The position numbers and the translations under genes are program-made. The notes below the pieces were generated by a model that had not been told where the DNA came from, searched no databases, and worked only from the letters and a program-made list of their open reading frames with translations. Shown here in pieces: positions 3,306 to 55,215 of a DNA stretch of 57,642 bases. The DNA comes from an uncultured Candidatus Saccharibacteria bacterium. Its GTDB lineage: Bacteria > Patescibacteriota > Minisyncoccia > Portnoybacterales > UBA2143. The stretch spans positions 1 through 57,642 of the forward strand of contig CAZQLH010000004.1 in assembly GCA_964594155.1 (NCBI GenBank). The letters are read 5' to 3'. The stretch's first letter is position 1. The number at the start of each line of letters is the position of its first letter.

Positions 3306-4083
3306 ACCTTTAATCATAGCTAACTGGAAATGCAATCCTATAACCCAAAAAGAAGTTGAACATCTTTTAAGTTCTCTTAAAAGAGATATTAAAGAATCAG
3401 CCAAAGCAGAAGTAATTATTTGCCCTCCTTTTATATATTTATCTCAAGTTAAGGATAAGGGTTTTACTGTTGGAGCGCAGAATTGCTTTTGGGAAGACAA
3501 AGGCCCTTATACTGGAGAAGTTTCTCCATCCATGCTTAAAGATTTAGGATGCGAATATGTCATTGTTGGCCATTCAGAAAGAAAGAAGTATTTTCAAGAA
3601 ACAGATGAGAAGATTAACAAGAAATTAAAAGCTGTTTTAAAAAATCGGCTTAAACCAATCTTATGCGTTGGCGAAGAAGCAAGAGACGCGTTTAATTCTG
3701 AAGGAAGGCCAGTTAATGAAATGAGCTTAATAATTGGCGAACAGACAGAAAAGGCATTAATAAATGTTCCTCAAGCTAAAATGAAAGAAATAGTTATTGC
3801 TTATGAGCCAATTTGGGCTATTTCCAGCAATACAGGAATTCCTTGCTTGCCAGATGATGCTATGAAAGCAGCTTTGTTTATTAGAAAAACATTAACTAAG
3901 CTTTATAGCAGAACTATAGCTGAAAAAGCTAAAATTATTTATGGCGGAAGCGTGAATAGCCAAAATGCAATGGATTATATTAAAGAAGCAAGAATGGATG
4001 GTGTTTTAGTTGGTTCAGCTTCGTTAAACGCGAGTGAATTTGCTAAAATCGTGGAAAAAGTTAAAGGATTTGATGAACATTAA
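3295..4083 (+). CDS. tpiA: Triosephosphate isomerase
   Basis: ANWK, GAQN, YTGEVS, VGHSER, AYEPIWAI and YGGSV motifs. Confidence 0.95.
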   Translation: MNNKPLIIANWKCNPITQKEVEHLLSSLKRDIKESAKAEVIICPPFIYLSQVKDKGFTVGAQNCFWEDKGPYTGEVSPSMLKDLGCEYVIVGHSERKKYFQETDEKINKKLKAVLKNRLKPILCVGEEARDAFNSEGRPVNEMSLIIGEQTEKALINVPQAKMKEIVIAYEPIWAISSNTGIPCLPDDAMKAALFIRKTLTKLYSRTIAEKAKIIYGGSVNSQNAMDYIKEARMDGVLVGSASLNASEFAKIVEKVKGFDEH

Positions 4084-4155
4084 CACTCTATAATTTCTTC
4101 GCGCTTTACCCTAAAGGGCTCCGACGCGTCTCAGAAATTTCAGAGTGTTAATCAA
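4079..4155. repeat. 77-bp palindromic element (MITE-like), copy 1; supplies the tpiA stop codon
   Basis: ATTAACACTCT...AGAGTGTTAAT terminal inverted repeat; 73/77 identical to 52517-52593. Confidence 0.85.
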
Positions 4156-4176
4156 TGCACGGTCTATGATAAAAAT

Positions 4177-5343
4177 ATGAAATTCCTTAGGGATTTTAAT
4201 TTTGAAGATAAGCGCGTTTTGGTTCGGGTTGATTTTAATGTGCCTTTAGGCAATGATAAACAGGTTGATGAAAAAGAGGATTGGCGTTTAAGAGCTGTTT
4301 TGCCAACTATTAATTATTTATCAAGACAAAAAGCAAAGATTATTCTTTTAGCTCATTTAGGAAGACCAAGAGGAAAAAAAGAAAAAGAGTTAATGCTTGA
4401 TCCAGTGTCTCAAAGATTAGAAGAATTGTTAAATCAAAAAATATTGAAATTAGATGATTGTATTGGCCCAGAAGTTGAAAAAAACATAGTTAAGATGAAT
4501 CCAGGCGAGATAGTTCTTTTAGAAAACCTCCGTTTTTATCCTGAAGAAAAAGAAAATTCTCCTGATTTTGCCAAACAACTGGCTAAATTAGGAGATTTTT
4601 ATGTTAATGACGCCTTTGGAACAAGCCATCGCGCCCATGCTTCAATAAATGGCTTGCCAAAACATTTGCCTAATTGCGCTGGCTTGCTTTTGGAAAAGGA
4701 AATTAAGAATCTTTCCAAGGTTTTAAATGAATTAGAAAATCCTTTATTAGTAATTATTGGCGGAGTTAAAATTTCAACTAAAATTAAATTCATTGAAGTA
4801 TTTTTAAAAAAAGCTGATAATTTAATTTTAGGAGGAGCTTTAGCCAATACAGTTATTAGAGCCAAGGGCTTTGCCATAGGCAAGTCTATTATTGAAGAAG
4901 AAATGGTTGATCAGGTTAAGAAATTAGAACTAACAAGCATTAAGCTTCATCTGCCAGTAGATGCTGTTGCTTCAGTTGATGTTTCTGGGAATAAGGATAG
5001 CCGTATTGCTCCTATTGGCAAAACAAAAGAAGATGAGATGATTTTAGATATTGGGCCAGAAAGCGAAGATCTTTTTAGAAAGATAATTTTTCAGGCTAAA
5101 GTGATTATCTGGAACGGGCCAATGGGGATTTTTGAAGTAGATAAGTTTGCTAAAGGAAGCAGGGAAATAGCTAAAGCAGTTGTTCAAAGTTCAGCTTTTT
5201 CAGTGGCAGGCGGCGGTGACACTATTGCTCTTTTAGAACAACTGAATTTATTTGATAAAATAGATCATGTTTCTACTGGCGGAGGATCAATGCTTAAATT
5301 TTTAGCAGGAGAAAAACTGCCAGGCATAGAAGCCTTAAATTGA
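4177..5343 (+). CDS. pgk: Phosphoglycerate kinase
   Basis: RVDFNVP, HLGRP, LENLRF, NDAFGTSHRAHAS, WNGPMGIFE and STGGGS motifs. Confidence 0.97.
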   Translation: MKFLRDFNFEDKRVLVRVDFNVPLGNDKQVDEKEDWRLRAVLPTINYLSRQKAKIILLAHLGRPRGKKEKELMLDPVSQRLEELLNQKILKLDDCIGPEVEKNIVKMNPGEIVLLENLRFYPEEKENSPDFAKQLAKLGDFYVNDAFGTSHRAHASINGLPKHLPNCAGLLLEKEIKNLSKVLNELENPLLVIIGGVKISTKIKFIEVFLKKADNLILGGALANTVIRAKGFAIGKSIIEEEMVDQVKKLELTSIKLHLPVDAVASVDVSGNKDSRIAPIGKTKEDEMILDIGPESEDLFRKIIFQAKVIIWNGPMGIFEVDKFAKGSREIAKAVVQSSAFSVAGGGDTIALLEQLNLFDKIDHVSTGGGSMLKFLAGEKLPGIEALN

Positions 5344-5344
5344 G

Positions 5345-7105
5345 ATGAAGTGGCAAGTAAAACCCAAAGCGCCAAGCGCTTTTTTTAAAAAATTTCCTGA
5401 ATATTCTCCTTTGATTGCGCAAATGCTTTATAACAGGGGATTAAAAACTCAACAACAAATTGATGAGTTTTTTAATTCTGACTATCAGGAAGATATTCAT
5501 GATCCTTTTTTGCTCAAAGGAATGAAAAAAGGAGTTAAGCGTATTCTCCAAGCAATTGAAAAGCAGGAAAAGATATTAATCTACGGCGATTTTGACGCTG
5601 ATGGCGTTTGTTCAGCAGCTGTTTTGTTTCTTACTCTTAAAGATTTAGGAGCTCAAAATATTAGCACATATATTCCTGACAGAGAAAAAGAAAATCACGG
5701 GCTTAATCAAAAATCAATTGAAGAAGCAGCTCAGAATAAAACAGATTTGATTATTACTGCTGATTGCGCCAGTGGCGATATTAAAGAAGTGGATTTAGCT
5801 AAATCTTTAGGAATGGATGTTATTATCACTGACCACCATCAAGTTGGAGATGAAATACCCAAAGTAATAGCTTTGATTAATCCTTGGCAAAAAGGAGATA
5901 AATATCCTTTTAAAGGATTGTCTGGGACTGGCGTTGCTTATAAGCTGGCCTGCGCTTTATTGTCTTCAAAAGGAAATAAAAACGACAATCTATTAGAGAA
6001 ATGGTTATTGGATTTAGTCGCTATAGCCACAGTAACTGATGTAGAATCAATAATTGGCGAGAACCGAACTTTGGTTAAATACGGCTTAGGCGTCTTAGCC
6101 CAAACCAAGTGGCTGGGATTAAAGAAATTAATGGAAATAGCTCAAGTCAATCCTCAAATAAATCATCATTCTTTGAATGGTGAAGCGCCTTTAACTAATC
6201 TTGATACCTATACTCTGGGCTTTGTATTGGGTCCGCGCTTGAATGCGGCTGGGCGAATTGGCCATGCTAATACTGCTTTTCGCCTTTTAACTACTCAAGA
6301 CAAAAAAGAAGCTAAAGAATTAGCCTTAAGACTTAATCAGAAAAATATTAAGCGACAGGGCTTGACTAATAGGGTTTTTAAAGAAGTTGTAAATCGTTTA
6401 GATGAAAAAATTGATCAAGGGAAAGATTTCAAGCTTGTTTTTGAAGGAAGTTCTGATTGGCCAATAGGTTTGGTTGGCTTAATAGCTGGCAAGATTAAGG
6501 ATAAATATTCCCGTCCAGCCATTATTTATCATCAAAGAGGCGATTTAATCCATGCTTCCTGCCGAAGCATTCCAGAATTTGATTTAATGGGCATGCTCAA
6601 ACAAGGCGCTAAGTTTTTTGATGATTTTGGCGGACGTTGCGGAACAGGCGGATTTAGAATGAATTCTAAAAAACTTAATCAAGTTAAAGAAAAATTTAGC
6701 CAGATAGCTGAAAAAAAATTGAGAAATATAGATGTAACTTCTGTTTTAGAAATTGATAAAGAATTATATTTAAAAGATGTTGATTGGAAGAATTATGATC
6801 AAATTCAGCGTTTTGCGCCTTTTGGAAAAGCTAATTCAGAGCCAAGATTTTTAATTAAAGGATTAGAAGTAAATAATTTAAGAGCAGTTGGCAATAATTC
6901 AGGGCACTTAAAAATGAAATTGACAATATTTGATAAGGATTCAAAAACAGCTAAAAGCTTTAATGCGATTGGATTTGGATTAGGCAAAAGAACAGAGGAG
7001 ATAAAAAAAGGAGACTTGATTGATGTTGTTTTTGAGCTTATAGTCAATGAATGGAATGGACAGCGTAATTTAGAAATAAAAGTAATTGATTTAAAATTAG
7101 CATAA
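5345..7105 (+). CDS. recJ: Single-stranded DNA exonuclease RecJ
   Basis: YGDFDADG, PDR...HGL, TDHH, IATVTDV, GPRLNAAGRI, PFGKAN and GHLK motifs. Confidence 0.93.
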   Translation: MKWQVKPKAPSAFFKKFPEYSPLIAQMLYNRGLKTQQQIDEFFNSDYQEDIHDPFLLKGMKKGVKRILQAIEKQEKILIYGDFDADGVCSAAVLFLTLKDLGAQNISTYIPDREKENHGLNQKSIEEAAQNKTDLIITADCASGDIKEVDLAKSLGMDVIITDHHQVGDEIPKVIALINPWQKGDKYPFKGLSGTGVAYKLACALLSSKGNKNDNLLEKWLLDLVAIATVTDVESIIGENRTLVKYGLGVLAQTKWLGLKKLMEIAQVNPQINHHSLNGEAPLTNLDTYTLGFVLGPRLNAAGRIGHANTAFRLLTTQDKKEAKELALRLNQKNIKRQGLTNRVFKEVVNRLDEKIDQGKDFKLVFEGSSDWPIGLVGLIAGKIKDKYSRPAIIYHQRGDLIHASCRSIPEFDLMGMLKQGAKFFDDFGGRCGTGGFRMNSKKLNQVKEKFSQIAEKKLRNIDVTSVLEIDKELYLKDVDWKNYDQIQRFAPFGKANSEPRFLIKGLEVNNLRAVGNNSGHLKMKLTIFDKDSKTAKSFNAIGFGLGKRTEEIKKGDLIDVVFELIVNEWNGQRNLEIKVIDLKLA

Positions 7106-7545: not shown

Positions 7546-7571
7546 GGTTAGTCAACCTAAGGTCCGACCTT
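7544..7571. repeat. AAGGTCNGACCTT-family short palindromes
   Basis: AAGGTTAGTCAACCT followed by AAGGTCCGACCTT, directly after the rnhA stop; same core as the elements at 53576-53719 and 55147-55215. Confidence 0.6.
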
Positions 7572-7622: not shown

Positions 7623-8016
7623 ACCCAAGTAAGTTAGATAGTCGCCTTGATTATATCAGGGAGGAAAGTCCGGGCACCGTGACCCGCCTTTGCGCTACGC
7701 GCTACGGCGAGGTGAAAAAAGACAGTGGGTAACTCCCACCGTTCGTGAGAATAGGGAAAGTGCCACAGAAACAATGTTTCTTCTTTATTAGGGGTAATCT
7801 CCTAAAGAGAGGTAAAAGTGAAAAGTGAGGGCCTAAGAATCCTCTTCCCGCAAGGAAACTTGTCGGGATGGTAAACCCTGTCTGGTGCAAGAGCAAAGTG
7901 TGGCTCGCTTGATCCCGACGGTAACGTCGGGGCTAGATAAATGACTATCTTTACCCGCCTTCGCGCTTCGCGCTACGGCGTGGTGAAACAGAACCCGGCT
8001 TATTGCTTGCTTGGGT
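7623..8016 (+). ncRNA. rnpB: RNase P RNA
   Basis: GAGGAAAGTCCGGGC, AGTGCCACAGAAA, GGTAAACCC...GCAAG and ACAGAACCCGGCTTA conserved blocks; P1 ACCCAAGTAAG/CTTGCTTGGGT; P2 AGATAGTCG/TGACTATCT. Confidence 0.95.
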
Positions 8017-10616: not shown

Positions 10617-11718
10617 AACTGGCGTAGAAGAATATGCAATTAATCTTTTAGCCCATCTTTTAAGTTTAGAGAATAAGGTTAATTACAAGCTTTTCTATAA
10701 CGCCTATCAAAAAGTTAAGCTGAATTATGATTGGCTTTCTTTGGATAATGTTCAATTAAAAGACTTTAAAATTCCTAATCGTCTTTTTTTTGCCTTGGCC
10801 CGTTATTTTAACCAGCCAAAAATAGATAATTTGCTTAAAGGAGTTGATGTTTATTTCAACCCTCATTTTTTTATCGCTCCAGTATCTTCAAAATGCAAAA
10901 AGATTATTACTTTTCATGATTTGTCTTTTGAGCACTATCCAGAGTTTTTTTCTTGGCGCAAGAGAGCTTGGCATAAATTCTTAATGAACACGCGGCAAGA
11001 AGCTGAACAAGCTGATAAAATCATTGCTGTTTCAGAATCAACCAAGCAGGATTTAATTAATCTTTATGGAATTGAAAAAGAAAAGATAAAAGTAATTTAT
11101 TCAGGAGTAGGAAAGCAATTTAAAACCATATCTTCAAAATCTGATCTTAAAAACACATCTTTAAAGTATGGCCTGCCAAAAAGGTTTATCCTTTTTTTTG
11201 GCACTATTGAACCTCGCAAAAATATCATTGGATTGATTAAGGCCTTTGAAATATTAAAGGAGGGTCATTCATCAATTCCATCAGAATTGAAATTAGTTAT
11301 TGCTGGAACCAAAGGATGGCTTTATCAGGATATTTTTAGAACAGCTCAGGAATCAAGACATAGACGGGATATATTTTTTACTGGATTTATTAAAGAGCAA
11401 GACAAGCCTTGTTTATACAATTTAGCTGAGCTTTTTGTTTTCCCAAGTTTTTTTGAAGGATTCGGCTTTCCTCCTTTGGAAGCAATGGCTTGCGGTCTGC
11501 CAACAATTGTTTCTGGGAATTCTTCTTTGCCAGAAGTTGTTGGCTCAGGAGCTTTGATTATTGACCCTTTTAATATTGATGAAATGGCTTGGGCTATGGA
11601 AACAGCTTTGATTAACAAAAGCTTAAGAGAAAAGTTAATTCAAAAAGGCCTAAAACAGGCAAAAAAGTTTTCTTGGAAAAAATGCGCTCAAAAAACATTA
11701 AAAGTTCTAAAAGAATAA
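10573..11718 (+). CDS. GT4 glycosyltransferase
   Basis: Likely start MNIGIDIR at 10573; TFHDL, GTIEPRKN and EGFGFPPLEAMACG. Confidence 0.88.
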   Translation: MNIGIDIRVLARGARTGVEEYAINLLAHLLSLENKVNYKLFYNAYQKVKLNYDWLSLDNVQLKDFKIPNRLFFALARYFNQPKIDNLLKGVDVYFNPHFFIAPVSSKCKKIITFHDLSFEHYPEFFSWRKRAWHKFLMNTRQEAEQADKIIAVSESTKQDLINLYGIEKEKIKVIYSGVGKQFKTISSKSDLKNTSLKYGLPKRFILFFGTIEPRKNIIGLIKAFEILKEGHSSIPSELKLVIAGTKGWLYQDIFRTAQESRHRRDIFFTGFIKEQDKPCLYNLAELFVFPSFFEGFGFPPLEAMACGLPTIVSGNSSLPEVVGSGALIIDPFNIDEMAWAMETALINKSLREKLIQKGLKQAKKFSWKKCAQKTLKVLKE

Positions 11719-12836
11719 AGATTGGAATTGACGCACGGCTTTTTGGCCCTAAACAAACAGGGCCTGGTCGCTATGTTCAAAAGCTGATAGAGAATCTGGA
11801 AAAGATTGATTTGGATAATAAGTATATTATTTTTCTAAGAAAAGAAAATTGGGATGAATATCATCCTCAAAACCCAAACTTTAAAAAAGCTTTGGCTGAT
11901 TGTCATTGGTATACTTTAAAAGAGCAGATTATGATGCCTTTTAAGATTAGGCAGGCCAAGGTTGATTTAATGCATTTTCCTCATTTTAACGCCCCGATTT
12001 TTTGTTTTAAGCCGTTTGTGGTTACAATTCATGATTTAATCTTGAAAAGATTTCCTACTCGTCGGGATTCTGTTTCAGAGCCCTTTTTATACTGGTTTAA
12101 GAATTTAGCTTATCATTTAGTAATTTATTCAGCAGTTAAAAGGTCTAAAAAGATTATTGCTATTTCTAATTATACCAAGAAAGATATTTTGAAGTATTTC
12201 AAAGTTAATCCAAAAAAAATAAAAGTGGTTTACGAGGGCGTGCCAGATAATCCAAGGACCGTCATAGAAAATGATGTTCTTGGAACAAGGACGTCATTTT
12301 CAGGACGGTCCTTAAATAAGCCTTACTTGCTTTACGTAGGCAATGCTTATCCTCATAAAAACCTAGAGCGTTTAATCATGGCTTTTAATGGATTGAATAA
12401 AAAAAATGGGATGCAATTGGTTTTAGCTGGGCGATTAGACTATTTTTACAAAAAAATACAAAAGAGATTTTCAGGTTTTAAAAATATTGTTTTTACAGAT
12501 TTTGTTTTAGACAAAGATTTGCCAATCTTATACCAAAACGCTTCTCTTTATGTTTTTCCTTCTTTATGCGAGGGGTTTGGCTTGCCGCCTTTAGAAGCAA
12601 TGACTTTTCAAGTGCCAGTTGTTTGCTCAAAAGCAACTTGCTTGCCAGAGATTTTAGGCTCAGCTGCTGTTTATTTTAATCCAGAAGATATTGAAGACAT
12701 AGCTGAAAAAATATGGATGGTTTTAGAAGATAAAAATCTTCAGGAAAAACTAAAAATAGAAGGAAATAAGAGAATTAAAAAGTATAGCTGGCTAAAAATG
12801 GCTGAAGAAATATTGAGAGAGTATAGAAAGATATGA
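11673..12836 (+). CDS. GT4 glycosyltransferase (start uncertain, possibly ATA at 11715)
   Basis: KIGIDAR, TIHDL, GNAYPHKN and EGFGLPPLEAM; carries a 20-codon palindromic insert. Confidence 0.88.
   Translation: MEKMRSKNIKSSKRIKIGIDARLFGPKQTGPGRYVQKLIENLEKIDLDNKYIIFLRKENWDEYHPQNPNFKKALADCHWYTLKEQIMMPFKIRQAKVDLMHFPHFNAPIFCFKPFVVTIHDLILKRFPTRRDSVSEPFLYWFKNLAYHLVIYSAVKRSKKIIAISNYTKKDILKYFKVNPKKIKVVYEGVPDNPRTVIENDVLGTRTSFSGRSLNKPYLLYVGNAYPHKNLERLIMAFNGLNKKNGMQLVLAGRLDYFYKKIQKRFSGFKNIVFTDFVLDKDLPILYQNASLYVFPSLCEGFGLPPLEAMTFQVPVVCSKATCLPEILGSAAVYFNPEDIEDIAEKIWMVLEDKNLQEKLKIEGNKRIKKYSWLKMAEEILREYRKI
12254..12313. repeat. 60-bp in-frame palindromic insert in GT4
   Basis: AAGGACCGTC...GACGGTCCTT ends and inner GAAAATGATGTTCTTG/CAAGGACGTCATTTTC stem; read as PRTVIENDVLGTRTSFSGRSL. 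Confidence 0.8.
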
Positions 12837-15281: not shown

Positions 15282-15300
15282 TCGGCTATCCGATAGCCGA
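15282..15300. repeat. Palindrome TCGGCTATC-C-GATAGCCGA, copy 1
   Basis: Perfect inverted repeat directly after a TAG stop; same core at 16938-16956. Confidence 0.8.
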
Positions 15301-15310
15301 ATATATATTA

Positions 15311-16933: not shown

Positions 16934-16934
16934 C

Positions 16935-30083: not shown

Positions 30084-30087
30084 AAAT
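30029..30087 (+). repeat. 59-bp perfect direct repeat, left copy (3' end of permease)
   Basis: Identical to 31406-31464, checked base by base. Confidence 0.95.
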
Positions 30088-42524: not shown

Positions 42525-42564
<40 letters not shown>

Positions 42565-44083: not shown

Positions 44084-44115
<32 letters not shown>

Positions 44116-45404: not shown

Positions 45405-45685
45405 CCGCCCGTCATATTAGGGAAGTCGGTAGTACCCGAAGTCTCTTCATTAGAAGGGCCTAAGGTAAGATCGGTGACCAGAATAAAGTCGTAACAAGGC
45501 ATGCGTAGCGGAAGCTGTGCATGGATCACCTCCTTTCTATATATTTAATATATATGGGGTGTCGATACAGGTTGAGATATAGAATTCTTATCTCAACTCG
45601 TGGGTATTGGTCTTGGAGCCCTAAATTAAGACCTGATAGTTCTAATGAACTTCATTTGGGACAACTACACGAGATTGCAACAGGA

Positions 45686-45711
45686 AATACTTGCTTTGGC
45701 AGGTGTTTTTT
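45686..45711 (+). terminator. Terminator-like hairpin between 16S and tRNA-Ile
   Basis: AATACTTGC-TTTG-GCAGGTGTT followed by T run. Confidence 0.5.
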
Positions 45712-45730
45712 GATAGGATTGTTAATAGTC

Positions 45731-45804
45731 GGGCGTATAGCTCAGTTGGTTAGAGCGCATCTCTGATAAGGATGAGGTCCTTGGTTCGAATCCAAGTACG
45801 CCCA
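45731..45804 (+). tRNA. tRNA-Ile(GAT)
   Basis: Acceptor GGGCGTA/TACGCCC, anticodon loop CTGATAA, T-loop GTTCGAA. Confidence 0.95.
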
Positions 45805-45906
45805 CAAGGTTATCCACAGGCATATTGTGGATTTTTTTGTTACAATATAGGTAGTAAAATTATCTTGAAAAAACTTAGCTTATAATGAAAGGGGGTGAAA
45901 AATGGA

Positions 45907-46587
45907 ATGGTTATTCAAACATGGACAGAAGTGGTAACAGCTTCTCTTCAAACACTCTGGTCTGGTTTTATTGGTTTTTTGCCAAATCTGTTAGGGGCAA
46001 TTATAGTTTTTATTATTGGTTGGATAATTGCTGTTCTTTTAGGCAAGTTGGCTTCTCAGATTATCAGAACTTTAAGAGTTGATCAGGTTTTAGAGAAGAT
46101 GGGTTTTAAGAAGAGTTTTGAAAGAGCTAATTTAAAGTTGGACTCAAGCATGTTTTTTGGCGAATTAGTGCGATGGTTCTTTATTATCGTCTTTTTAATG
46201 GCTGCTACTGATATTCTTGGTCTTTACCAAGTAACAGAATTTCTAAGAAGGGTTCTTCTTTATATTCCTCAGTTAATTGTTGCTGTTTTGATTTTATTAG
46301 CTGCTGTATTGATTGCTAGTTTTATGCAAAAACTTGTTAAGGCTAGCGTGGAAGCAGCTGGTTTTGGAGCATCTAATTTTTTAGCAACATTAACTAAATG
46401 GAGTATCCTGGTTTTTGCTGGTTTGGCTGCTTTGTTGCAATTAGGTATTGTTCCGTCTTTAATTCAAACCATCTTTACGGGAGTAATAGCTGCCTTTGTT
46501 GTTGCATCTGGCTTAGCTTTTGGACTAGGAGGAAAGGATTTTGCAACTGAGGTTCTTGGCAAGATAAAAAGAGACATTTTAGGATAA
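45907..46587 (+). CDS. TM-helix-repeat membrane protein (mechanosensitive-channel/CmpX-like) inside the rRNA spacer
   Basis: Repeated FLP.L.GA.I.FIIGW and YIPQLIVAVLIL units, A.GLAFGLGGKD; SD-like GGGGGTG upstream of ATG 45907. Confidence 0.82.
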   Translation: MVIQTWTEVVTASLQTLWSGFIGFLPNLLGAIIVFIIGWIIAVLLGKLASQIIRTLRVDQVLEKMGFKKSFERANLKLDSSMFFGELVRWFFIIVFLMAATDILGLYQVTEFLRRVLLYIPQLIVAVLILLAAVLIASFMQKLVKASVEAAGFGASNFLATLTKWSILVFAGLAALLQLGIVPSLIQTIFTGVIAAFVVASGLAFGLGGKDFATEVLGKIKRDILG

Positions 46588-46646
46588 ACTTTAAGAGGAT
46601 TATATAAATTAATTGAAAAATCCGAGATCTTTCGGTTGTTATGGTA

Positions 46647-46675
46647 TTGACATAGATTAGGAATAAATATAATAT
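46647..46675 (+). promoter_or_regulatory. Separate promoter upstream of 23S
   Basis: TTGACA, 17 bp, TAATAT. Confidence 0.65.
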
Positions 46676-46688
46676 TATATATATAGAT

Positions 46689-46730
46689 ATGAATAAACTA
46701 AAAAGATCATTATACATAGAAAGCGGTTAA
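46689..46730 (+). CDS. Possible 13-aa leader peptide MNKLKRSLYIESG
   Basis: Short ORF just after the promoter; last codons GAAAGCGGT are complementary to the terminator 5' arm. Confidence 0.3.
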   Translation: MNKLKRSLYIESG

Positions 46731-46763
46731 TAACTGTCTATTTGTTATTTGTCTCTGAAATGA

Positions 46764-46787
46764 AGACCGCTTTCAAGCGGTCTTTTT
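46764..46787 (+). terminator. Intrinsic terminator in the 23S leader
   Basis: AGACCGCT-TTCA-AGCGGTCT then TTTT. Confidence 0.7.
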
Positions 46788-48983
46788 AGTTTAATAGGGC
46801 AATTAGGATAGTTTTTTGACAATTAGGAAAAGTAGTTTTTCCGTCAATAGTAAAATTGGAAAAGTAATTTGTCTAAATTTTTAGTGGTAAAATTTAGACG
46901 GATAAATATTAAGGGCCTGTGACGGATGCCTTGACATAAAGAGCCGATGAAGGACGTGGTGTGACTGCGATAAGCCTCGGGAAGGTGTCTAACAACCTTT
47001 GATCCGGGGATGTCCGAATGGGGAAACCTAATTTTGCGATAAACAAAATTAGCCTGGTCGAATGACTGGGCAGGGAACTCGGGGAAGTGAAACATCTCAG
47101 TACCCGGAGGAAAAGAAAATAAGTCCCGACGTAAAGTCGGGAAATATTCCCTAAGTAGCGGCGAGCGAAAAGGGAAAAGCCCAAACTTATTTTATTTAAT
47201 TTATTAAGTAAGATGAGGGTTGCAAGGTAGTAACGCTCTGAAGCGTCCCTTGGTTGCTTTAAAGTAACTAAAGGATGTCTCAGAAGAAGTTTATTAAATA
47301 AAGGCTGGTTAATTGAATCTTGCTGGAAAGCAGAACCAAAGAGGGTAATAGTCCCGTAAGTGAAAATTCCTTTATGCTTCTAGTTATTATTCTTAAGTAC
47401 CTCGGGACCAGACTATCCCGTGGGAAGCTGGCAGTCCTATGCTGCCAAGGCTAAATACTCTTTATGATCGATAGCGCACCAGTACCGTGAGGGAAAGGTG
47501 AAAAGTAGCCCGTTGAGGGCGGTGAAATAGAACCTGAAATCATGGGCCTACAAAGAGTCGGAGCCCCGATTACGCTTGCGTAATCGTGGGTGACGGCGTG
47601 CTTTTTGCAGAACGAGCCAACGAGTGTATGTAAACGGCTTGTTTAAGTCCGTTAAGGACGGAGACATAGTGAAAGCGAGGATTAATAGTCCGTCCCGACT
47701 TTACGTCGGGGTAGTCGTTTGTATACGACCCGAAGCCAGAGCGAGCTAACCATGGCCAGGATGAAATCTCGACGAAAGTCGGATGGAGGTCCGCACCCAC
47801 TAACTGTGCAACGTTAGGGGATGAGCTGTGGTTAGAAGTGAAAAGCTAATCGAGCCTGGTAATAGCTGGTTCTTCCCGAAATAGCTTTAGGGTTAGCTCT
47901 CTGTTAATGTCTTAGGGGGTAGAGCACTGGATGGGATATGGATGGGTTCGTCCCGCCTATCTCAATCAAACTCCGAATACCTATAATTTCTGCGAAGGAG
48001 TCAGACTGTGGGGGCTAAGCTCCATGGTCAAAAGGGAAACAGCCCAGACTGTCGTCTAAGGTCCCTAAATCAAACTAAGTGGGAAAGGAAGTGAAGTTTC
48101 TCTGACAGCTAGGAGGTTGGCTTAGAAGCAGCCATCCTTTAAAGAGTGCGTAACAGCTCACTAGTTCAGAGATTTTGCGCCGAAGATTTAACGGGGCTAA
48201 AGTTTGATACCGAAGACACAGCTGTCCATCTTTTAGATGGGCGGGGTAGGGAAGCGTTCTCTAATGCGTTGAAGTCCACGACGTGAGTCGGGATGGAGTT
48301 TAGAGAAGTGAGAATGTTGGCATAAGTAACCACAAATCCGGTGAGATACCGGATCGCCGAAAACCCAAGGTTTCCTTGGCAATGAACATCAGCCAAGGGT
48401 TAGGCGGGCCTAAGTTGCGGCCGCGATAAGCGGTCAGTAGCGATGGACAGACGGTTAATATTCCGTCCCCTCAGTATTTTTTCGATGAAAGGACGAGGTT
48501 TAGTAGCTTGAGCGTCTTATTGGATTGTCGTTCTTGGCTTAAGAGCGCTGGTTAGGCAAATCCGGCCAGCATCAACTCAAGAGTTGAGAAAAGGTTTTTC
48601 TACGGAATAACCAATTCAAGTGAGCAGGCCTCCAAGAAAAGTTTCTAGAGTTAAGGATATTGAGTCCGTACCGTAAACCGACACAGGTGGGTAGGTCGAG
48701 TAGACCAAGGCGAACGAGTGATTCCTTGTGAAGGAACTCGGCAAAACAGCGGGTGTAACTTCGGGATAAACCCTGCCATTATCACTTGTGATATTGGCCG
48801 CAGCGAAAGATTCCTGACGACTGTTTATCAAAAACACAGCTCCCTGCTAACTCGCAAGAGGATGTATAGGGGGTGACGCCTGACCAATGCTAGAAGGTTA
48901 ACGTTTGACGTCTTTCTCTTCGGAGTTAGGCGAAAGGCCGAAGCCCTAGTGAATGTCAGCGATAACTATAATCGTTCTAAGGT

Positions 48984-49207
48984 GAATTAGTTGCCTTAGT
49001 AAAATTCGGCTATATGCTGGAATAGCTGTGTATCTTGAGCTACTCATAATATGAGTAACAATGCTACAAGTGCAGCCAATCAGCAGGGAAGTCTTAGTGA
49101 CCCCTCAGAGACTACACGCCGAACTCTGTAATATTACAGGGAAGATATAGTCCGATCTTTATAGCGATATAAAGAAGTCTTGAGCGAATCAAGACGATAA
49201 CAGCTTG
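48984..49207 (+). mobile_element. Group I intron after 23S U1931 (224 nt, no ORF)
   Basis: P1 AAGGU/GCCUU, AATCAGCAGGG, CAGAGACT, AAGATATAGTCC, terminal G; exons rejoin as CTAAGGT|AGCGAAA. Confidence 0.9.
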
Positions 49208-49227
49208 AGCGAAATTCCTTGGCTGGT

Positions 49228-49477
49228 GAGAAATTTGCCAGGCTAGAAAGTGATTTCTAGTAAAAATTCAACTTATAACGGTGAATTCTATATGGTATAA
49301 TATAGATAATACCGTGGGAAGTTTGATAAAATATCAAACCCCGTAACGACTTAGTTAACTTAGTTGACTAGACGATAGGGAATACAGAAATGTTTAAACT
49401 ATCGTAATACGTTGACTCTTACTTGATAAGTAAGATGAAGATATAGTCTATGCCATTAGTAATAATGGAGTGATATG
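49228..49477 (+). mobile_element. Group I intron after 23S U1951 (250 nt, no ORF)
   Basis: P1 CUGGU/GCCAG, ACCGTGGGAAG, CCGTAACGACT, AAGATATAGTCT, terminal G; GCTGGT|AAGTTC. Confidence 0.9.
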
Positions 49478-49969
49478 AAGTTCAGTCCTGCACGAATGGC
49501 GTCACGATCGGGAAACTGTCTCCACAAGGAGCTCGGTGAAAATGCAGTGGGGGTGAAGATGCCCTCTACTTGCGGCAAGACGGAAAGACCCCGGAAGCTT
49601 TACTACAGGTTCTCATTGGGGTTTTGTTTTAGATGCGTAGCATAGCGGGGAGGCTTTGAAGCTTGTTTTTCGGAATGAGTGGAGCCGCCAGTGAAATACC
49701 CGTCTTTTAAAATAATGCTTCTAATCCTGATTTTACTTTGGGAAACAGTGGGTGCTGGGTAGTTTGAGTGGGGCGCTCGCCTCGTAAAAGGTAACCGAGG
49801 CGCTTAAAGGTCAGCTAGGTCCGGATGGAAATCGGACTGGTCGTGTAAAGGCACAAGCTGGCTTTACTGCAAGACGGACATGTCGCGCAGTTGCGAAAGC
49901 AGAACTTAATGAACTGATGGTGGGTTATAGAACCGCCAGAGATTAACGGATAAAAGTTACTCCGGGGAT

Positions 49970-50214
49970 AACAAACGTTGTCCCGAGATGAAAGTAATTT
50001 CATTTCTAGTACACAGCTAATAACGGTGGAGGTTGTTTAATACAATTAATACCGTGGGAAGTCTTCGTGACCCCGTAACGACTGAGTCGCTTTAAGCGAC
50101 GAAATAAAAGGTTCCTGATAATCAGGGATATAAAAACTTTTATTATACGCTGTGCTCCGCATTTAAGCGGATGAAGATATAGTCTGCTCTAATAGCAATA
50201 TTAAGATTAAAGTG
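49970..50214 (+). mobile_element. Group I intron after 23S U2449 (245 nt, no ORF)
   Basis: P1 GGGAU/GUCCC, same core blocks, terminal G; GGGGAT|AACAGG. Confidence 0.9.
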
Positions 50215-50276
50215 AACAGGCTAATAGCGTCTAAGAGTCCCTATCGACGACGCTGTTTGGCACCTCGATGTCGGCT

Positions 50277-51131
50277 TACCAATTTAAGATAGGCCGCTGT
50301 TGGGAGTAATCCCAACTGACAAAATTCAACTTATAACGGTGAATGCTATATAATATAGTTAATACCGTGGGAAGTTAGAGAAATTTATGAAGTTATCATA
50401 TAGACAAAAAGAAATTCTAATAGGTTCTTTATTAGGTGATGGTCATTTAGAGAAAAATGGAGATAATGTTCGTTTAAGAATAGAACATAAAGAAAATCAG
50501 GAAAATTATTTAAAATGGAAACAATTAGAATTTAAAAATTTGTCTTGTGGTAAATCAAGATTAGTTTGTAAAATTGATAAAAGAAATAATAAAATGTATA
50601 AATCTTGGCATTTTTCGACATATTCTTTAGAAATATTCAATTCTTATCAACAAAAGTTTTATAAGAATAGAATTAAAATTATTCCAAAGAATATTATAGA
50701 ATTAATGTTTTCTCCTTTGTCCTTAGCTATTTGGTTTATGGATGATGGTCATAAAAGAACTGATTGTAATGCACTAAGATTAAGTACAGATTCATTTCGG
50801 CTTTACGAACAAAAATTATTATTGAAATGTCTAAAAATAAATTTTGGAATAAATAGTAGGCTACATAAAAAGAAAGATACTTGGAATATTTATATTCCAA
50901 GTGCAGAAGCAAGAAAATTTTGTAAGATAGTAAAGCCATATATTATTCCAGAAATGAATTATAAGATTTCTTTAACCCCGTAACGACTGAGTCTATATAA
51001 GATAGACGAGATAGTGGGTACCTAATATTTAGGATTTAAACCATTATCACACGTTGAGCCCCTATTGAATAATGAACATTTAATAGGGTGATGATATAGT
51101 CTATACATGTAGTAATACGTGAAATAATATG
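50277..51131 (+). mobile_element. Group I intron after 23S U2511 (855 nt)
   Basis: P1 CGGCU/GGCCG, core blocks, terminal G; GTCGGCT|CATC. Confidence 0.9.
50387..50983 (+). CDS. Intron-encoded LAGLIDADG endonuclease (two motifs)
   Basis: ILIGSLLGDGHL and LAIWFMDDG. Confidence 0.9.
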   Translation: MKLSYRQKEILIGSLLGDGHLEKNGDNVRLRIEHKENQENYLKWKQLEFKNLSCGKSRLVCKIDKRNNKMYKSWHFSTYSLEIFNSYQQKFYKNRIKIIPKNIIELMFSPLSLAIWFMDDGHKRTDCNALRLSTDSFRLYEQKLLLKCLKINFGINSRLHKKKDTWNIYIPSAEARKFCKIVKPYIIPEMNYKISLTP

Positions 51132-51156
51132 CATCTCATCCTGGGGGTGGAGAAGC

Positions 51157-51187
<31 letters not shown>

Positions 51188-51204
51188 AGGTACGTGAGCT
51201 GGGT

Positions 51205-52028
51205 AAGTGAAAATGAGCCCAGAATAAACTGACTAATAACGATGAAGTCCGTAATTTTATGCTATAATAAAGTTATATGGGTAATATCGTGGGAAGACAA
51301 AATTTTATATCTAATTTTCAAAAACAGGCCATTATCAGCTGTCTTTTAGGAGATGGGAGATTAGAGTGTAGATCAAAAAATGGAACTGCAAGATTAAGAA
51401 TTCATCATGGAGAAAAACAGAAAAATTATGTGTTTTGGAAATATGATATTTTCAAGAATATAGTTAACAGTAAGCCTAAAAGAATAGTATGGAAAGATAA
51501 AAAAAGAGATATAAATAATATATCTTGGTATTTTCATACTTCAACAATTAAAGAGTTAGGAAATTTACATTCATTGTTTTACAATAATGATAAAAAGATT
51601 TTACCTAAGAATCTTTATAATTTGTTAACACCACTGTCTTTAGCAATTTGGACAATGGATGATGGTGATAATGATAAAAATTCTATAAGGTACAATATAC
51701 AATCCTTTTCTTATAGAGAACAAAGAATGTTAATAGAATTATTAAAAAAGAAATATCAATTAAAATCGAATCTTAATAAAGATAGAAATAGTTATCGATT
51801 AAGAGTAAATAAAGAGAGTAAAACTAAATTGATTAAATTGATTAGCCCATTTATAATTCATTCAATGAAATACAAAATTTTGTCCCCGTAACGACTTAAT
51901 CATTTTAGATGATTGGGCGATAGGTGCTTAATATTTAAGATTTAAACTATCGCAATACGTCAGTCTAGTTTTTTATAAAAGAACTAGAAAGTTATAGTCT
52001 GTACTTTTAGCAATAAAAGAATAATATG
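51205..52028 (+). mobile_element. Group I intron after 23S U2584 (824 nt)
   Basis: P1 CUGGGU/GCCCAG, core blocks, terminal G; GCTGGGT|TCAGACC. Confidence 0.9.
51277..51891 (+). CDS. Intron-encoded LAGLIDADG endonuclease (two motifs)
   Basis: IISCLLGDGRL and LAIWTMDDG; N-terminus NIVGR is translated from intron core sequence. Confidence 0.9.
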   Translation: MGNIVGRQNFISNFQKQAIISCLLGDGRLECRSKNGTARLRIHHGEKQKNYVFWKYDIFKNIVNSKPKRIVWKDKKRDINNISWYFHTSTIKELGNLHSLFYNNDKKILPKNLYNLLTPLSLAIWTMDDGDNDKNSIRYNIQSFSYREQRMLIELLKKKYQLKSNLNKDRNSYRLRVNKESKTKLIKLISPFIIHSMKYKILSP

Positions 52029-52178
52029 TCAGACCGGCGTGAGCCAGGTTGGTCCCTATCTGCCGCAAGCGTTGATACTTGAAGGAAGTTGTCCATTGTA
52101 CGAGAGGATCCGGATGAACAAACCTCTGGTCTGCCAGTTGTCCTGCCAAGGGCATTGCTGGGTAGCTAAGTTTGGACG

Positions 52179-52211
<33 letters not shown>

Positions 52212-52384
52212 CCTCCTAAGATTAGGTATCATAGATTTGTAGAAGATGACTACATTGATAGGCTCTAGGTGTAAGCGCGGTAACGCGTTAAGCCGAGGAG
52301 TACTAATAAATCATCATTTATCCGTCTAAATTTTTTTACTAAGAATTTAGGCAAATTACCTTTCCAATTTTTTTTGCTTAGTCA

Positions 52385-52492
52385 TTGGGTGACTATACTA
52401 AAGGTGTTCCACCCGTTCTCATTCCGAACACGGAAGTGAAATCCTTTGAGGCCGATGATAGTGCTTTTGCGCGAAAGTAGGTAGTCGCCTAA
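52385..52492 (+). rRNA. rrf: 5S rRNA
   Basis: CCACCCGTTCTCATTCCGAACACGGAAGTGAA, GCCGATGATAG and GAAAGTAGGTAGTCGCC; flanked by an extended stem. Confidence 0.93.
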
Positions 52493-52516
52493 TGACTGAG
52501 CAAAAAAGTAAAGTTG

Positions 52517-52593
52517 ATTAACACTCTATAATTTCTTCGCGTTTTACCCTAAAGGGCTCCGACGCGTCTCAAAAATTACAGAATGTTAATCAA
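52517..52593. repeat. 77-bp palindromic element (MITE-like), copy 2
   Basis: TTGATTAACA/TGTTAATCAA ends; 73/77 identical to 4079-4155. Confidence 0.85.
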
Positions 52594-53575: not shown

Positions 53576-53719
53576 AAGGTCTGACCTATTAAGCGGGACC
53601 TTCTGCTTCGCGTAATGTCCCTACTTAATTATGTCAGACCTTATATTCAGTTGGCTTAAGGTCCGACATAGGAAAGTAGAAACCTTATTCAAAAGGTTTC
53701 GCTTGACAGGTCGGACCTT
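53576..53719. repeat. Two tandem AAGGTCYGAC...GTCRGACCTT palindromic elements (53576-53642, 53658-53719)
   Basis: 10-bp terminal inverted repeats; the first is an inverted copy of 55147-55215. Confidence 0.85.
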
Positions 53720-53747
53720 GAACAAAGAAATTTATAATTATATTTCT

Positions 53748-54827
53748 ATGTATAATCATCTTAGAAAACTTGATTGGCCTCTTGCTGTTATTGCCTTGCT
53801 TCTTTCTGGAGTAGGGCTTTTAACTATTAATGGCATTGGTCCCTTAGAGTCAATAGTTTTTTTTCAAAAACAAGCTGTTTTTATTTGTATTGGGTTTTTA
53901 ATTATGATTGCTATAAGTTTTTTTGATTATCGGATTTTTAAAAACAATTCATCTGTTTTAATTATTCTTTATTTGATTTCTTTAGCTGCTTTATTTTTTG
54001 TTCTTTTTTCTAAAGAGGTTAGGGGAGCTTCTAGCTGGTTTCATATAGGCTCTTTTCGTTTTGAGCCGATAGAATTTATTAAAATAATTACCATTTTGTT
54101 TTTAGCTAAATATTTTTCTTTTCGGCATATTGAAATGTATAGAGTTCGCCATCTTATTGTTTCTGGTTTTTATATAGGTCTTTTTATTATTGCGGTTATT
54201 CTTCAGCCTGATTTTGGATCAGCTTTGGTTCTAATTTGTATTTGGCTGGGAATAATTATTGTAGCTGGAATTAAAACACGCCATTTGGTTGTTCTTTCAT
54301 TAATTATGGCGCTTTTGTTTATTGGAAGCTGGTTTGGCGTTCTTAAGGATTATCAAAAACAAAGAATTCTTACTTTTCTTAATCCTCAAGAAGATCCTTA
54401 TGGCAGAGGATATCATATTAGCCAATCATTGATTGCTGTTGGATCAGGAGGGTTATTTGGACAAGGACTGGGTTTAAATTCTCAAGCTGGTCTTAAGTTT
54501 TTACCTGAACAGCATACTGACTTTATTTTTGCCGCTTTGTCTGAACAAAGGGGATTGGTTGGCGTTTCTTTTTTGCTTATTCTTTTTGCTTTTTTGTTTT
54601 GGAGAATTATTAAAATAGCTTTGGATTCTTCAAATAATTTTTCTCGTCTTTTTGCTGTTGGTTTAGCAATAATGATTTTTGCTCAAGTGATTATTAATGT
54701 TGGCATGAATATGGCTATTCTGCCGATTACTGGATTAACTTTGCCTTTGGTTAGTTATGGCGGCAGCAGTTTATTAAGTATTTTTATAGGATTAGGCATT
54801 CTTCAGAGTATTAAAGCGCGGATTTAG
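53748..54827 (+). CDS. rodA: SEDS family peptidoglycan polymerase RodA/FtsW
   Basis: GASSWF.IG...EP.EF.K, LQPDFGSA, YQKQRI..FL.P..DP.G.GY...QS..A.GSGG, PEQHTDFIF and LPLVSYGGSS; true start likely 53748. Confidence 0.9.
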   Translation: MYNHLRKLDWPLAVIALLLSGVGLLTINGIGPLESIVFFQKQAVFICIGFLIMIAISFFDYRIFKNNSSVLIILYLISLAALFFVLFSKEVRGASSWFHIGSFRFEPIEFIKIITILFLAKYFSFRHIEMYRVRHLIVSGFYIGLFIIAVILQPDFGSALVLICIWLGIIIVAGIKTRHLVVLSLIMALLFIGSWFGVLKDYQKQRILTFLNPQEDPYGRGYHISQSLIAVGSGGLFGQGLGLNSQAGLKFLPEQHTDFIFAALSEQRGLVGVSFLLILFAFLFWRIIKIALDSSNNFSRLFAVGLAIMIFAQVIINVGMNMAILPITGLTLPLVSYGGSSLLSIFIGLGILQSIKARI

Positions 54828-54916
54828 TTATCCACTTGACCTATGTTCAGCAAAAAAGCTATAATAGATAAAGATTAATATACATTACAAAACATTAATA
54901 AAATCTGTTAAAAACT

Positions 54917-55126
54917 ATGAAATACCTTACTATTAAAAAAGCTGCTAAACTGCTTCATGTTACTCCTTTGACTTTAAGAAACTGGGATAAAAAAGGAATT
55001 CTAAAACCATATCGCAATCCAGTTAATAATTATAGGGTTTACCGCCTTGATCAAATAGAAGGGTTTTTAAGAAAACTGGAATTAAGCCGGGCTAAACAGG
55101 CAAAAAGGAAAATGGACTTGTTTTAG
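54917..55126 (+). CDS. Small MerR/excisionase-type HTH protein
   Basis: LTIKKAAKLLHVTPLTLRNWD..G.L...R.P.NNYRVY. Confidence 0.85.
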   Translation: MKYLTIKKAAKLLHVTPLTLRNWDKKGILKPYRNPVNNYRVYRLDQIEGFLRKLELSRAKQAKRKMDLF

Positions 55127-55146
55127 GAATTGAAGTTAGTATTTTT

Positions 55147-55215
55147 AAGGTCTGACATAATCAAGTAGGGACATTACGCCATAGGCGGAAGGTCCCGCTT
55201 GATAGGTCAGACCTT
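55147..55215. repeat. 69-bp palindromic element, inverted copy of 53576-53642
   Basis: Reverse complement AAGGTCTGACCTATCAAGCGGGACCTTCCGCC...GCGTAATGTCCCTACTTGATTATGTCAGACCTT matches the first element. Confidence 0.85.

Follow-up and report, generated by a model that had tools for sequence, protein, structure and literature searches.

Several unrelated miniature repeat families in the genes, spacers and RNA loci of a 0.63-Mb Patescibacteria genome

In Rickettsia, short palindromic elements (RPEs) of roughly 100–150 nt occur in frame in protein genes, and in RNA genes as well; their host genome is reduced and AT-rich, and they are tolerated as extra surface peptides. Yeast mitochondrial GC clusters and the double-hairpin elements of Allomyces are GC-rich hairpins scattered through a small AT-rich genome—in spacers, in variable regions of rRNA and occasionally in frame—with no encoded transposase. 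In REP/REPIN–RAYT systems, such as TnpA-REP of E. coli and the REPINs of Pseudomonas (PMC3116915, PMC3337134, PMC5581495), a HUH/Y1 gene in single copy lies between REPs of its own, these REPs are also dispersed, mostly as inverted doublets that form long hairpins, and they are lineage-specific while the genomic neighborhood of the RAYT is kept. GTAG- and CGTC-tagged REPs are described in PMC3733652 as small palindromes, several types to a genome and mostly downstream of genes, with the tag defined as sitting at an unpaired end; intragenic REPs are reported there, as are CGTC REPs that lack a dedicated transposase, and its abstract names eight phyla and does not mention Patescibacteria. Our literature search found no paper that mentions both REPIN–RAYT and Patescibacteria.

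The elements described here are a variant of those of the REPIN and RPE type. They lie in a 57,642-nt stretch of DNA (the window) from a small Patescibacteria genome of 629 kb (G000), in which genes were called crudely as ORFs. Presence and absence were judged against G001, a genome of the same genus, fetched whole and about 82–91% identical to G000; because G001 is the sole close relative compared, gain and loss of a spacer element look alike. A preliminary description of the window had proposed at least five unrelated repeat families, all GC-rich. Each element that it listed is present, and repeated above the level of chance, and at least six families can be told apart—C, AAGG...CCTT, B, E, F and G—that are mutually dissimilar in sequence. 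GC-richness holds for B, E, F and the single CCCGAC hairpins (58–75% GC), but not for C, G and the AAGG...CCTT elements (only 36–49%). Overall, 75 GC-rich hairpins having a stem of 7 bp were counted, versus 4–9 in codon-block shuffles, an enrichment of about 10-fold. The reading that we favor, and consider likely to be right, is that several independent miniature repeat families without self-encoded mobility populate the whole genome, of which the window gives a sample. Patescibacteria genomes are among the smallest and most streamlined in bacteria; in the present one, repeats are nonetheless tolerated, and continue to be exchanged, within essential genes (lepA, rpsP, trmD, a glycosyltransferase gene), the RNase P ribozyme and 23S rRNA.

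The AAGG...CCTT elements of the window are these:

7559–7571, no strand assigned: single AAGGTCCGACCTT module upstream of rnpB, from a palindromic-module scan
12254–12314, no strand assigned: REPIN-like doublet, subfamily A2, in frame in a GT4 glycosyltransferase gene (11673–12836)
53576–53643, minus strand: composite hairpin, subfamily D, upstream of ftsW (z = −6.5)
53656–53720, plus strand: second D-type hairpin, a variant also in G001 (z = −7.5)
55146–55215, plus strand: subfamily D hairpin downstream of ftsW (z = −8.1)

The scan counted 14 modules of the first kind in G000 versus 0–4 in shuffles. The A2 doublet, whose subfamily has about 10 copies in G000, folds at −37.5 kcal/mol (z = −10.6) and is translated as PRTVIENDVLGTRTSFSGRSL between the two Pfam domains of the glycosyltransferase. 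Subfamily D has five copies; the first two D-type hairpins listed form an array, and the G001 site that matches the third holds a related, larger one.

That no transposase is in view is true of the window, but not of the genome, which encodes a RAYT (HUH tyrosine transposase) with HIH and YIHFNP motifs on contig C2, at 6057–6640. Its match to PF01797 (53 bits, cut-off 23) is the only one in G000 over the cut-off, making it single-copy, and it scores 85 bits against the NCBIfam equivalog NF047646 (cut-off 80). AAGG...CCTT REPs of another subfamily, A1, flank it: AAGGAACGTCCTTAAAAYATACGTCCTT units lie 12 nt upstream and across the 3′ end, where the final residues of the RAYT and its stop codon are encoded by REP sequence. 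The A1 28-mer has 17 matches in G000, none of them in the window, mostly paired at 34-nt spacing to give some 7–8 full 62-nt doublets; it occurs 20 times in G001, 0–2 times in any other of 41 genomes, and not at all in controls. RAYT orthologs in relatives keep the same neighboring genes, each with its own lineage-specific flanking palindrome. A2 (12254) and D (53576–55215) share the AAGG-N-CCTT/AAAA-spacer architecture of A1, not its sequence. An origin as MITEs derived from IS200/IS605 was rejected: the only Y1 gene is of the RAYT type (20 bits against NF033573, cut-off 55), and searches of the G000 genome found no TnpB and no IS-like long repeats.

Judged by sequence, the AAGG...CCTT doublets appear to be REPINs of a classical REPIN–RAYT system, A2 and D being linked to the RAYT by shared architecture only. 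The flanking REPs, the dispersed inverted doublets, the lineage-specific repeats and the conserved RAYT neighborhood are all as in E. coli and Pseudomonas. The differences are that the host genome measures 0.63 Mb and carries about 10 doublets per subfamily rather than hundreds, that at least one doublet is translated in frame within a gene, that a REP encodes the end of its own RAYT, and that the genome also contains several unrelated families for which the RAYT does not account. CGTC, the tag of some described REPs (PMC3733652), is contained in the A1 and A2 units and in family B, a comparison of sequence presence alone. The RAYT would cut and rejoin the folded REP hairpin on single-stranded DNA at the replication fork, a route that would leave no target duplication; any role for it beyond its own REP family would likewise be an inference.

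Family C is a hairpin of 72–77 nt, with about 20 copies in G000, all intergenic. Two are in the window:

4079–4155, plus strand: family C hairpin of the ATTAACACTCT subfamily, in the tpiA–pgk spacer (repeat search, fold, comparison with G001)
52517–52593, plus strand: family C hairpin, 24 nt past 5S rRNA, in a block that extends to about 52609

The first folds at −26.3 kcal/mol (z = −5.7); its inserted block extends to about 4170, and the first bases provide the stop codon of tpiA. The second is 91% identical to it. Both are absent from G001, where the matching tpiA–pgk site is empty and the other locus (L112) lacks the element. Among family C sites generally, four are empty in G001, three to five are filled and five are occupied by another family, instead. 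All 20 copies examined lie in the orientation of the GC-skew leading strand, although the skew is near zero at two, and the family, found in five genera, combines a conserved 37-nt core with compensatory changes in the outer stem. In the Rfam search no match covers the hairpin; the best, to IS009, scores 19.8 bits against a gathering score of 117 and falls mostly in the end of tpiA, and the remaining matches have E ≥ 0.7.

Runs in which co-oriented C copies bracket single genes (C1 at 13.7–15.6 kb, C9, C10 and C11) could suggest attC-like recombination sites of an integron-like cassette system. We find this very hard to credit: the window copies are solo, with the same flanking gene order in G001; G001 lacks the element of C1:15526 but keeps the genes; and family C has a conserved center and variable ends, the reverse of attC sites, whose center varies and whose ends are conserved. 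A second alternative is that C and the other elements are not mobile DNA at all but selected functional modules—RNA signals for termination, processing or stability, or useful additions to peptides and RNAs. Selected RNA function would give the very pattern of core, compensatory changes and orientation that C displays, with three to five pair types at outer-stem positions, and the spacer elements do lie between co-directional genes; outside family C, variable rnpB slots are hairpin-filled in most relatives, and F is identical across an order. Yet housekeeping sites (tpiA–pgk, 5S, lepA, rpsP) are empty in the congener, unrelated families replace each other in one spacer, C matches no Rfam family, and, as described next, one element is read in more than one frame and from either strand, and stands in both orientations in 23S rRNA. 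We regard selected function as a rather improbable account of the whole, and secondary use by the host can coexist with mobility.

Family B is a 42-nt CCCGAC double hairpin with 11 full copies in G000, all within ORFs; single CCCGAC hairpins occur in 23S rRNA:

32842–32883, minus strand: family B double hairpin, antisense, in frame in a 530-aa ORF (comparison with G001)
37996–38037, plus strand: family B double hairpin within rpsP, read in frame in the C-terminal tail of its product, ribosomal protein S16
47124–47142, plus strand: single CCCGAC hairpin at the tip of a helix in 23S rRNA (z = −5.6)
47693–47711, minus strand: CCCGAC hairpin in opposite orientation at another 23S helix tip (Rfam LSU model)

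The 530-aa ORF is conserved in G001 and has no Pfam match; S16 was identified by Pfam. Both B copies are cleanly absent from G001 as 42-nt units, the first with no target duplication, and just one of 10 syntenic B sites is filled there, most of the others being empty or replaced. Family B uses two sense frames and one antisense frame, reading PTQGRDPDPEGVG in five copies, SRRKVGIPTQKASG in four, and antisense in two. In 23S rRNA the site at 47124–47142 has 20 nt where the Rfam LSU model has 2, and that at 47693–47711 has 18 nt where the model has 1; the second hairpin is the reverse complement of the first except for one base. The coding copies are of DNA-level origin: B and F are read in several frames, the 23S hairpin stands in both orientations, and in G001 a family E hairpin is nested within a family C copy. 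In this identity at the level of DNA rather than peptide, and in a repeated unit that sits in frame in conserved genes and is absent from their orthologs (rpsP, the 530-aa ORF, lepA), the elements resemble RPEs; they differ in unit length (18–42 nt) and in comprising several unrelated families, one of them shared across an order, and have no sequence relationship with RPEs. The likeness to yeast and Allomyces mitochondrial hairpins, in GC-rich single or double form and in placement, is one of analogy only, those elements being organellar, eukaryotic and unrelated in sequence.

The preliminary description had held that coding inserts keep the frame, and in rpsP, the 530-aa ORF, lepA and the GT4 glycosyltransferase gene they do. 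It had also named a lack of presence/absence polymorphism among close relatives as grounds for refutation, and on those grounds it is not refuted: G001 lacks the two B and two C copies of the window, the insert in lepA and the second of the rnpB copies. Filled and empty junctions compared closely (two B, two C) reveal no clear target-site duplication; the lepA junction is ambiguous in this respect. More broadly, 385 aligned G000/G001 gene pairs contain 149 indels of at least 9 nt, and 29 of these have a GC content of 60% or more, versus 3% of length-matched coding windows. Among inserts with at least 50% GC, 35 of 46 are a multiple of three in length; many GC-rich inserts fold as hairpins, and many are singleton hairpin indels. 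To call the inserts a remodeling of the genome overstates matters: they add only 5–14 residues in loops or tails, or short hairpins at RNA helix tips. Under the favored reading, C, B, E, F and G would be distinct families of broader or different phylogenetic range, to which no mobilizer could be assigned, entering and leaving as discrete units with no clear target duplication. Selection would decide which copies survive: stop-free inserts of a multiple of three in protein loops and tails, hairpins at tips and variable slots of RNase P RNA and 23S rRNA, and spacer elements. Positions once occupied would be re-used, and sister genomes often differ in the family that a given spacer or RNA slot contains.

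Re-use of positions extends to rnpB, which carries two copies of family E (dispersed CCCGCC...GGCGAGG hairpins; nine matches at about seven loci, none in shuffles):

7682–7717, plus strand: family E hairpin in RNase P RNA, just past the P4 5′ strand (insert in the RF00010 alignment)
7953–7988, plus strand: another family E hairpin in RNase P RNA; its slot lies between P2 and the P4 3′ strand
38847–38864, plus strand: CCCCGCC hairpin in trmD, read YPASRG, a putative insert by its match to an insert at C2:59614

The rnpB copies, 92% identical to each other, are both inserts against the Rfam RNase P model. The first is present in G001; of 16 relatives, 6 have nothing in its slot and the remainder have other hairpins there. 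The second is absent in G001, where an unrelated AT-rich hairpin occupies the position. In most relatives the variable slots carry some hairpin, at fixed positions. A third candidate in rnpB, the CCCGAC hairpin at 7914–7931, was rejected as an insert, alignment identifying it as the native P18 helix. The trmD hairpin shares 17 of 18 bases with the 18-nt insert at C2:59614, itself absent in G001, and lies in a loop four residues longer than that of the solved TrmD structure 4ypw; it and the rnpB element appear to be variant members of a single CCC(C)GCC hairpin group.

Hairpins might also spread with no transposase, by template switching during replication and short-patch gene conversion that overwrites slots. 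Different hairpins do stand at fixed rnpB positions; P18 differs between the congeners at 8 of 12 stem positions with its length unchanged; singleton GC-rich hairpin indels abound; and where the element of a syntenic occupied spacer is not shared (15 cases), G001 has a different family in 9, against a background occupancy there of 26%. Against this, units of 42 nt and 17 nt recur unchanged at many unrelated sites, which requires a source to copy rather than de novo fold-back, the clean 42-nt insertions lack flanking homology to seed conversion, and the RAYT–REP association is textbook. We judge such a process unlikely as the general explanation.

The family F element of the window is the lepA insert:

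17323–17340, plus strand: 18-nt module of family F (CCTTCGACAAACTCAGG), in frame within lepA, where it places the residues PSTNSG ahead of the NKID motif

The module is absent from lepA in G001 and from the solved LepA structure 2ywe. With a z of −0.4 it fails to fold and so is no palindrome; the description of all the elements as palindromes applies to most of them, as hairpins, but not to this one. All seven G000 copies are coding and in sense orientation, in two reading frames (PSTSSG in five, ALRQAQ in two). F is present in 20 of 41 relatives, and its 17-nt unit is identical across an order; by sequence it more closely resembles a recognition site under constraint than a selfish repeat in decay. 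Of the 20 genomes with F, 13 have a Y1 transposase gene, as do 12 of the 21 without F, so that the two show no association; G033, which is 97% complete and lacks any Y1 gene, has 11 copies of F.

These counts bear on the proposal that a single HUH mechanism, the RAYT, moves every family, all of them being substrates of one cut-and-paste reaction on single-stranded hairpins. In its favor, G000 yielded no transposase-like gene besides the RAYT, the closely examined junctions lack clear target duplications, orientation is biased in C (20/20) and F (7/7), different families substitute for one another in the same spacer, and the elements behave as units that are inserted or lost. The proposal is only partly supported, however, because AAGG...CCTT alone is tied to the RAYT, whose REPs flank it, and F and B are independent of Y1 genes. 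The RAYT REP is genus-specific, yet B (in G016 and G008), C and F occur in other genera; G016 has nine B copies and only a remnant of a Y1 gene; G001 has the same RAYT, yet the B junction motif occurs there once; F does not fold; and no common end motif is seen among the families. That the RAYT moves them all thus strikes us as quite unlikely. We raise more tentatively, as a doubtful but genuine possibility, that Patescibacteria may write short fixed DNA modules into tolerant slots independently of Y1 transposases. Such modules would include the 17-nt F unit, the CCCGAC double hairpin of 42 nt and hairpins of the CCCGCC type; the places that receive them would be loops of proteins, helix tips of rRNA and RNase P RNA, and gene spacers; some enzyme or replication-linked process would swap hairpins at the same position; and the RAYT system would be only one of several players.

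If the favored reading is correct, REPIN–RAYT biology extends to Patescibacteria, the inserts provide natural insertion-tolerance maps for essential proteins and RNAs, and part of the odd inserts and length variation in Patescibacteria rRNA and RNase P RNA is accounted for; it also raises the question of what moves families such as F and B, independent as they are of Y1 transposases. Of practical concern, the repeats break metagenome assemblies and place spurious peptide motifs in protein databases. Metagenome contigs from four marine runs showed filled sites only, breaking at the repeats, and no movement was seen in them.

Family G, a GGCTATC palindrome, lies at two sites in the window:

15279–15303, no strand assigned: family G palindrome upstream of murJ (z = −4.3)
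16935–16959, no strand assigned: family G palindrome between murJ and lepA (z = −5.8)

It has five copies in G000 and three in G001, and in the murJ–lepA spacer of G001 an element of the AAGG...CCTT type is found in its place.

The genome that contains the window, G000, comprises 629 kb in 20 contigs at 33% GC; the window, its contig C4, has nearly all of its genes on the plus strand and includes an intron-rich rRNA operon. GC-rich hairpins exceed the chance level about tenfold (75 observed, against 4-9 in shuffles), and self-comparison of the genome, together with k-mer counts, yields several repeat families. All but one of these, family F, form much stronger folds than shuffled sequence does (z of -2.3 to -10.6); no folding was found for F in the same comparison.

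Copies of families B and C and of subfamilies A2 and D in the window
4079-4155, family C
12254-12314, subfamily A2
32842-32883, family B
37996-38037, family B
52517-52593, family C
53576-53643, subfamily D
53656-53720, subfamily D
55146-55215, subfamily D

The AAGG...CCTT group consists of subfamilies A1, A2, A3, A4 and D, which share a common layout: an outer AAGG-N-CCTT module is joined by an A-rich spacer to an inner module that ends in CCTT, and beyond the loop the whole is mirrored. The window's A2 doublet lies in a GT4 glycosyltransferase gene, where it is read through in frame between the protein's two domains. Family B is a 42-nt double hairpin, TCCCGACGCAAGGTCGGGATCCCGACNCAGAAGGCGTCGGGA, and all 11 of its full copies in G000 lie within ORFs. 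Family C, with about 20 copies in G000, every one intergenic, has a conserved core, GCGCTTTACCCTAAAGGGCTCCGACGCGTCTCA, enclosed by an outer stem of 15-18 bp that varies between subfamilies by compensatory changes; a permissive Rfam scan for C as a known RNA returned nothing relevant. The CCCGCC...GGCGAGG hairpin of family E has a C-A mismatch that is conserved in its stem. The family has nine matches at about seven loci (none in shuffles), among them both 36-nt copies in rnpB, and the insert in trmD is a close CCCCGCC variant. Family F, CCTTCGACAAGCTCAGG, occurs seven times in G000, always within coding sequence and in the sense orientation; a literature search on its sequence and its peptides found no relevant paper. 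These single sense-strand copies are unlike the paired ones of some relatives: in G011 (C7, C33) and G039 (C15) a 17-nt F unit forms inverted pairs 46-69 nt apart that resemble a REPIN-type doublet. Family G is the palindrome TTCGGCTATC(C/G)GATAGCCGAA, with five copies, two of which flank murJ (15279-16959) in the window. The ftsW gene (53.6-55.2 kb) is similarly bracketed, by inverted D hairpins; both genes belong to cell-wall lipid II, and their shared bracketing may be coincidence. The ftsW region was also considered as an IS, a 1.6-kb unit in which 68-nt inverted ends enclose the ORF at 53631-54827, and rejected: the ORF is no transposase, because Pfam identifies it as FtsW and the ends of the unit are two independent D hairpins.

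As the general insertion process proposed in the preliminary description would have it, presence/absence polymorphism between close relatives is abundant. The closest relative compared is a Patescibacteria MAG of the same genus, G001, taken whole (113 contigs, 672 kb), with about 82-91% identity to G000 in syntenic DNA. Both window copies of family B are clean 42-nt absences in this sister genome, without target duplication, and genome-wide it has one of the ten syntenic B sites filled; two are in stretches too variable for a call, and most others are empty or replaced. Neither window copy of family C is present there, while the tpiA-pgk and 5S flanks remain collinear. In G000, the first bases of the inserted C element (4079-4083) supply the TAA stop codon of tpiA; the protein ends ...VKGFDEH*, versus ...VIELE* in the sister, which has no C element at this place. 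An 18-mer in lepA is missing both from G001 and from solved LepA structures, and is therefore a gain in the G000 lineage. The trmD insert matches, at 17 of 18 bases, an insert elsewhere in G000 that is polymorphic against G001, whose assembly has neither a trmD contig nor 23S; the TrmD loop in G000 exceeds that of solved TrmD by four residues. Indels of at least 9 nt were counted blind in 385 aligned gene pairs; of the 149 obtained, 29 have at least 60% GC, compared with 3% of length-matched coding windows. Inserts of at least 50% GC are multiples of three in 35 of 46 cases, and many form hairpins. Marine metagenome contigs from four runs contain filled forms only and end at repeats, although such contigs would drop rare variants.

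RNA genes are occupied as well. Alignment to Rfam shows both 36-nt E copies to be inserts in RNase P RNA; the first is kept in G001, and the second site there holds an unrelated AT-rich hairpin. Across 16 relatives, rnpB has three slots, each either empty or filled by a hairpin whose sequence differs from genus to genus. In the relative G007 (L175), a variable rnpB slot after GCAAGAGCAAA contains CTCCGACGCAAGGTCGGAG, almost identical to family B's first hairpin. Rejected as an insert was the CCCGAC hairpin at 7914-7931, which the alignment shows to be native helix P18; relatives have it too. The P18 stem itself (7909-7932) differs from that of G001 (L064) at 8 of 12 stem positions, CCCGAC/GTCGGG versus CTTAAT/ATTAGG, with length equal and flanks about 95% identical; the GC-rich form recurs in G013 and G014. 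In 23S rRNA, one 19-nt CCCGAC hairpin sits at two helix tips in opposite orientations, at positions where the bacterial model has 1-2 nt. The 23S gene is flanked by a 56-nt inverted repeat, 89% complementary (46852-46907 and 52316-52371), that is probably an rRNA processing stem. The operon (42302-52493) is heavily interrupted: its 16S matches the Rfam model as two pieces, and it includes several internal ORFs and the following introns or intron parts.

44834-44913, match to group II D1-D4
48905-49174, group I intron

Sites are re-used. In many spacers the two sister genomes have different families: A1 versus C at C10:4060 and C11:2026, C versus D at C10:5396 and C10:15374, A1 versus A3 at C2:5448 and, ahead of lepA, G versus an AAGG...CCTT element. 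Leaving aside the syntenic occupied spacers with one and the same element in both genomes, 9 of the remaining 15 have another family in G001, against a background of some repeat in about 26% of G001 spacers. Such a pattern suggests slots that are hot or tolerant, or the exchange of one hairpin for another.

What moves these elements? The preliminary description saw no transposase, which is true of the window but not of the genome: C2:6057-6640 encodes a 194-aa Y1/HUH protein that scores above the cut-off of NCBIfam's curated REP-associated tyrosine transposase (RAYT) model. A1 REP units flank this gene, 12 nt upstream and across its 3' end, such that the last nine codons and the stop (KDVLFKDVP*) come from the enzyme's own REP (C2:6016-6086, L004). 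The A1 28-mer occurs 17 times in G000, 20 times in G001, and 0-2 times in every other genome. This is a textbook REPIN-RAYT arrangement. RAYT-family matches are found in 24 of 41 relatives; each copy examined has its own lineage-specific flanking palindrome, and the next gene is sigma-factor-like (from its N-terminus) or rfbA-like. The palindrome in these relatives starts where the RAYT frame ends, or just past it. Many relatives, among them G001 (contigs C96 and C12), also have Y1-like genes of a second type, which G000 lacks: these ORFs run to about 220-250 aa, and their match to PF01797 is confined to its C-terminal two-thirds. No TnpB/IS605 was found in G000, and no IS-like long repeats; its long repeats are nearly all paralogous Cys-rich genes (about 578 aa, 65-91% DNA identity), located as follows.

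Window, 20394-22130
C5, 39.9-46.1 kb
C8

The window also contains a perfect 59-nt direct repeat (30029-30087 and 31406-31464), its copies 1377 nt apart.

A single HUH mechanism for all of the families, as was first proposed, is another matter; their ranges and the distribution of Y1 genes speak against it. Family B has nine copies in G016 and five in G008, within open frames and encoding the same peptides; family C extends to four genera besides that of G000; and family F spans the order, with copies in 20 of 41 genomes and no match in controls. A Y1 gene above the Pfam cut-off occurs in 13 of the 20 genomes with F versus 12 of the 21 without. G033, 97% complete, lacks any Y1 gene while carrying 11 copies of F; the Y1 of G016 is a 28-residue fragment only; and G001, with the same RAYT as G000, matches the B junction motif just once. 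The AAGG...CCTT elements are therefore well explained by the RAYT, which for the other families is no more than a candidate mover. The mover of the families that do not follow it is the more interesting part.

Among the closest known systems are REPIN-RAYT itself—among the top 20 papers of our literature search, none links it with Patescibacteria/CPR—and the RPEs of Rickettsia; mitochondrial GC clusters are close by analogy. The tagged REPs of Di Nocera and colleagues (PMC3733652), intragenic ones included, also belong here.

The repeat units are discrete, and no clear target duplication is seen at the junctions read closely. The units are read in several frames and from both strands, and their identity is therefore one of DNA. 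An insertion of one family into another is seen in a C copy of G001 (L116, near 1405), whose inner CCC/GGG hairpin has an E-type hairpin, CCTGCCAGCCGGCGTGGCA, within its loop. REPINs, we suppose, would move as single-stranded DNA by way of the HUH enzyme, and the other families by some other or shared activity, with selection sparing only copies in spacers, hairpins at the tips of RNA helices and, in loops and tails, inserts of 3n length that lack stops. Family C could have a selected RNA role, which is compatible with mobility. Its copies are strand-biased, and the GC-skew and gene-strand signals for their orientation are inseparable, disagreeing in two copies only, both at near-zero skew.
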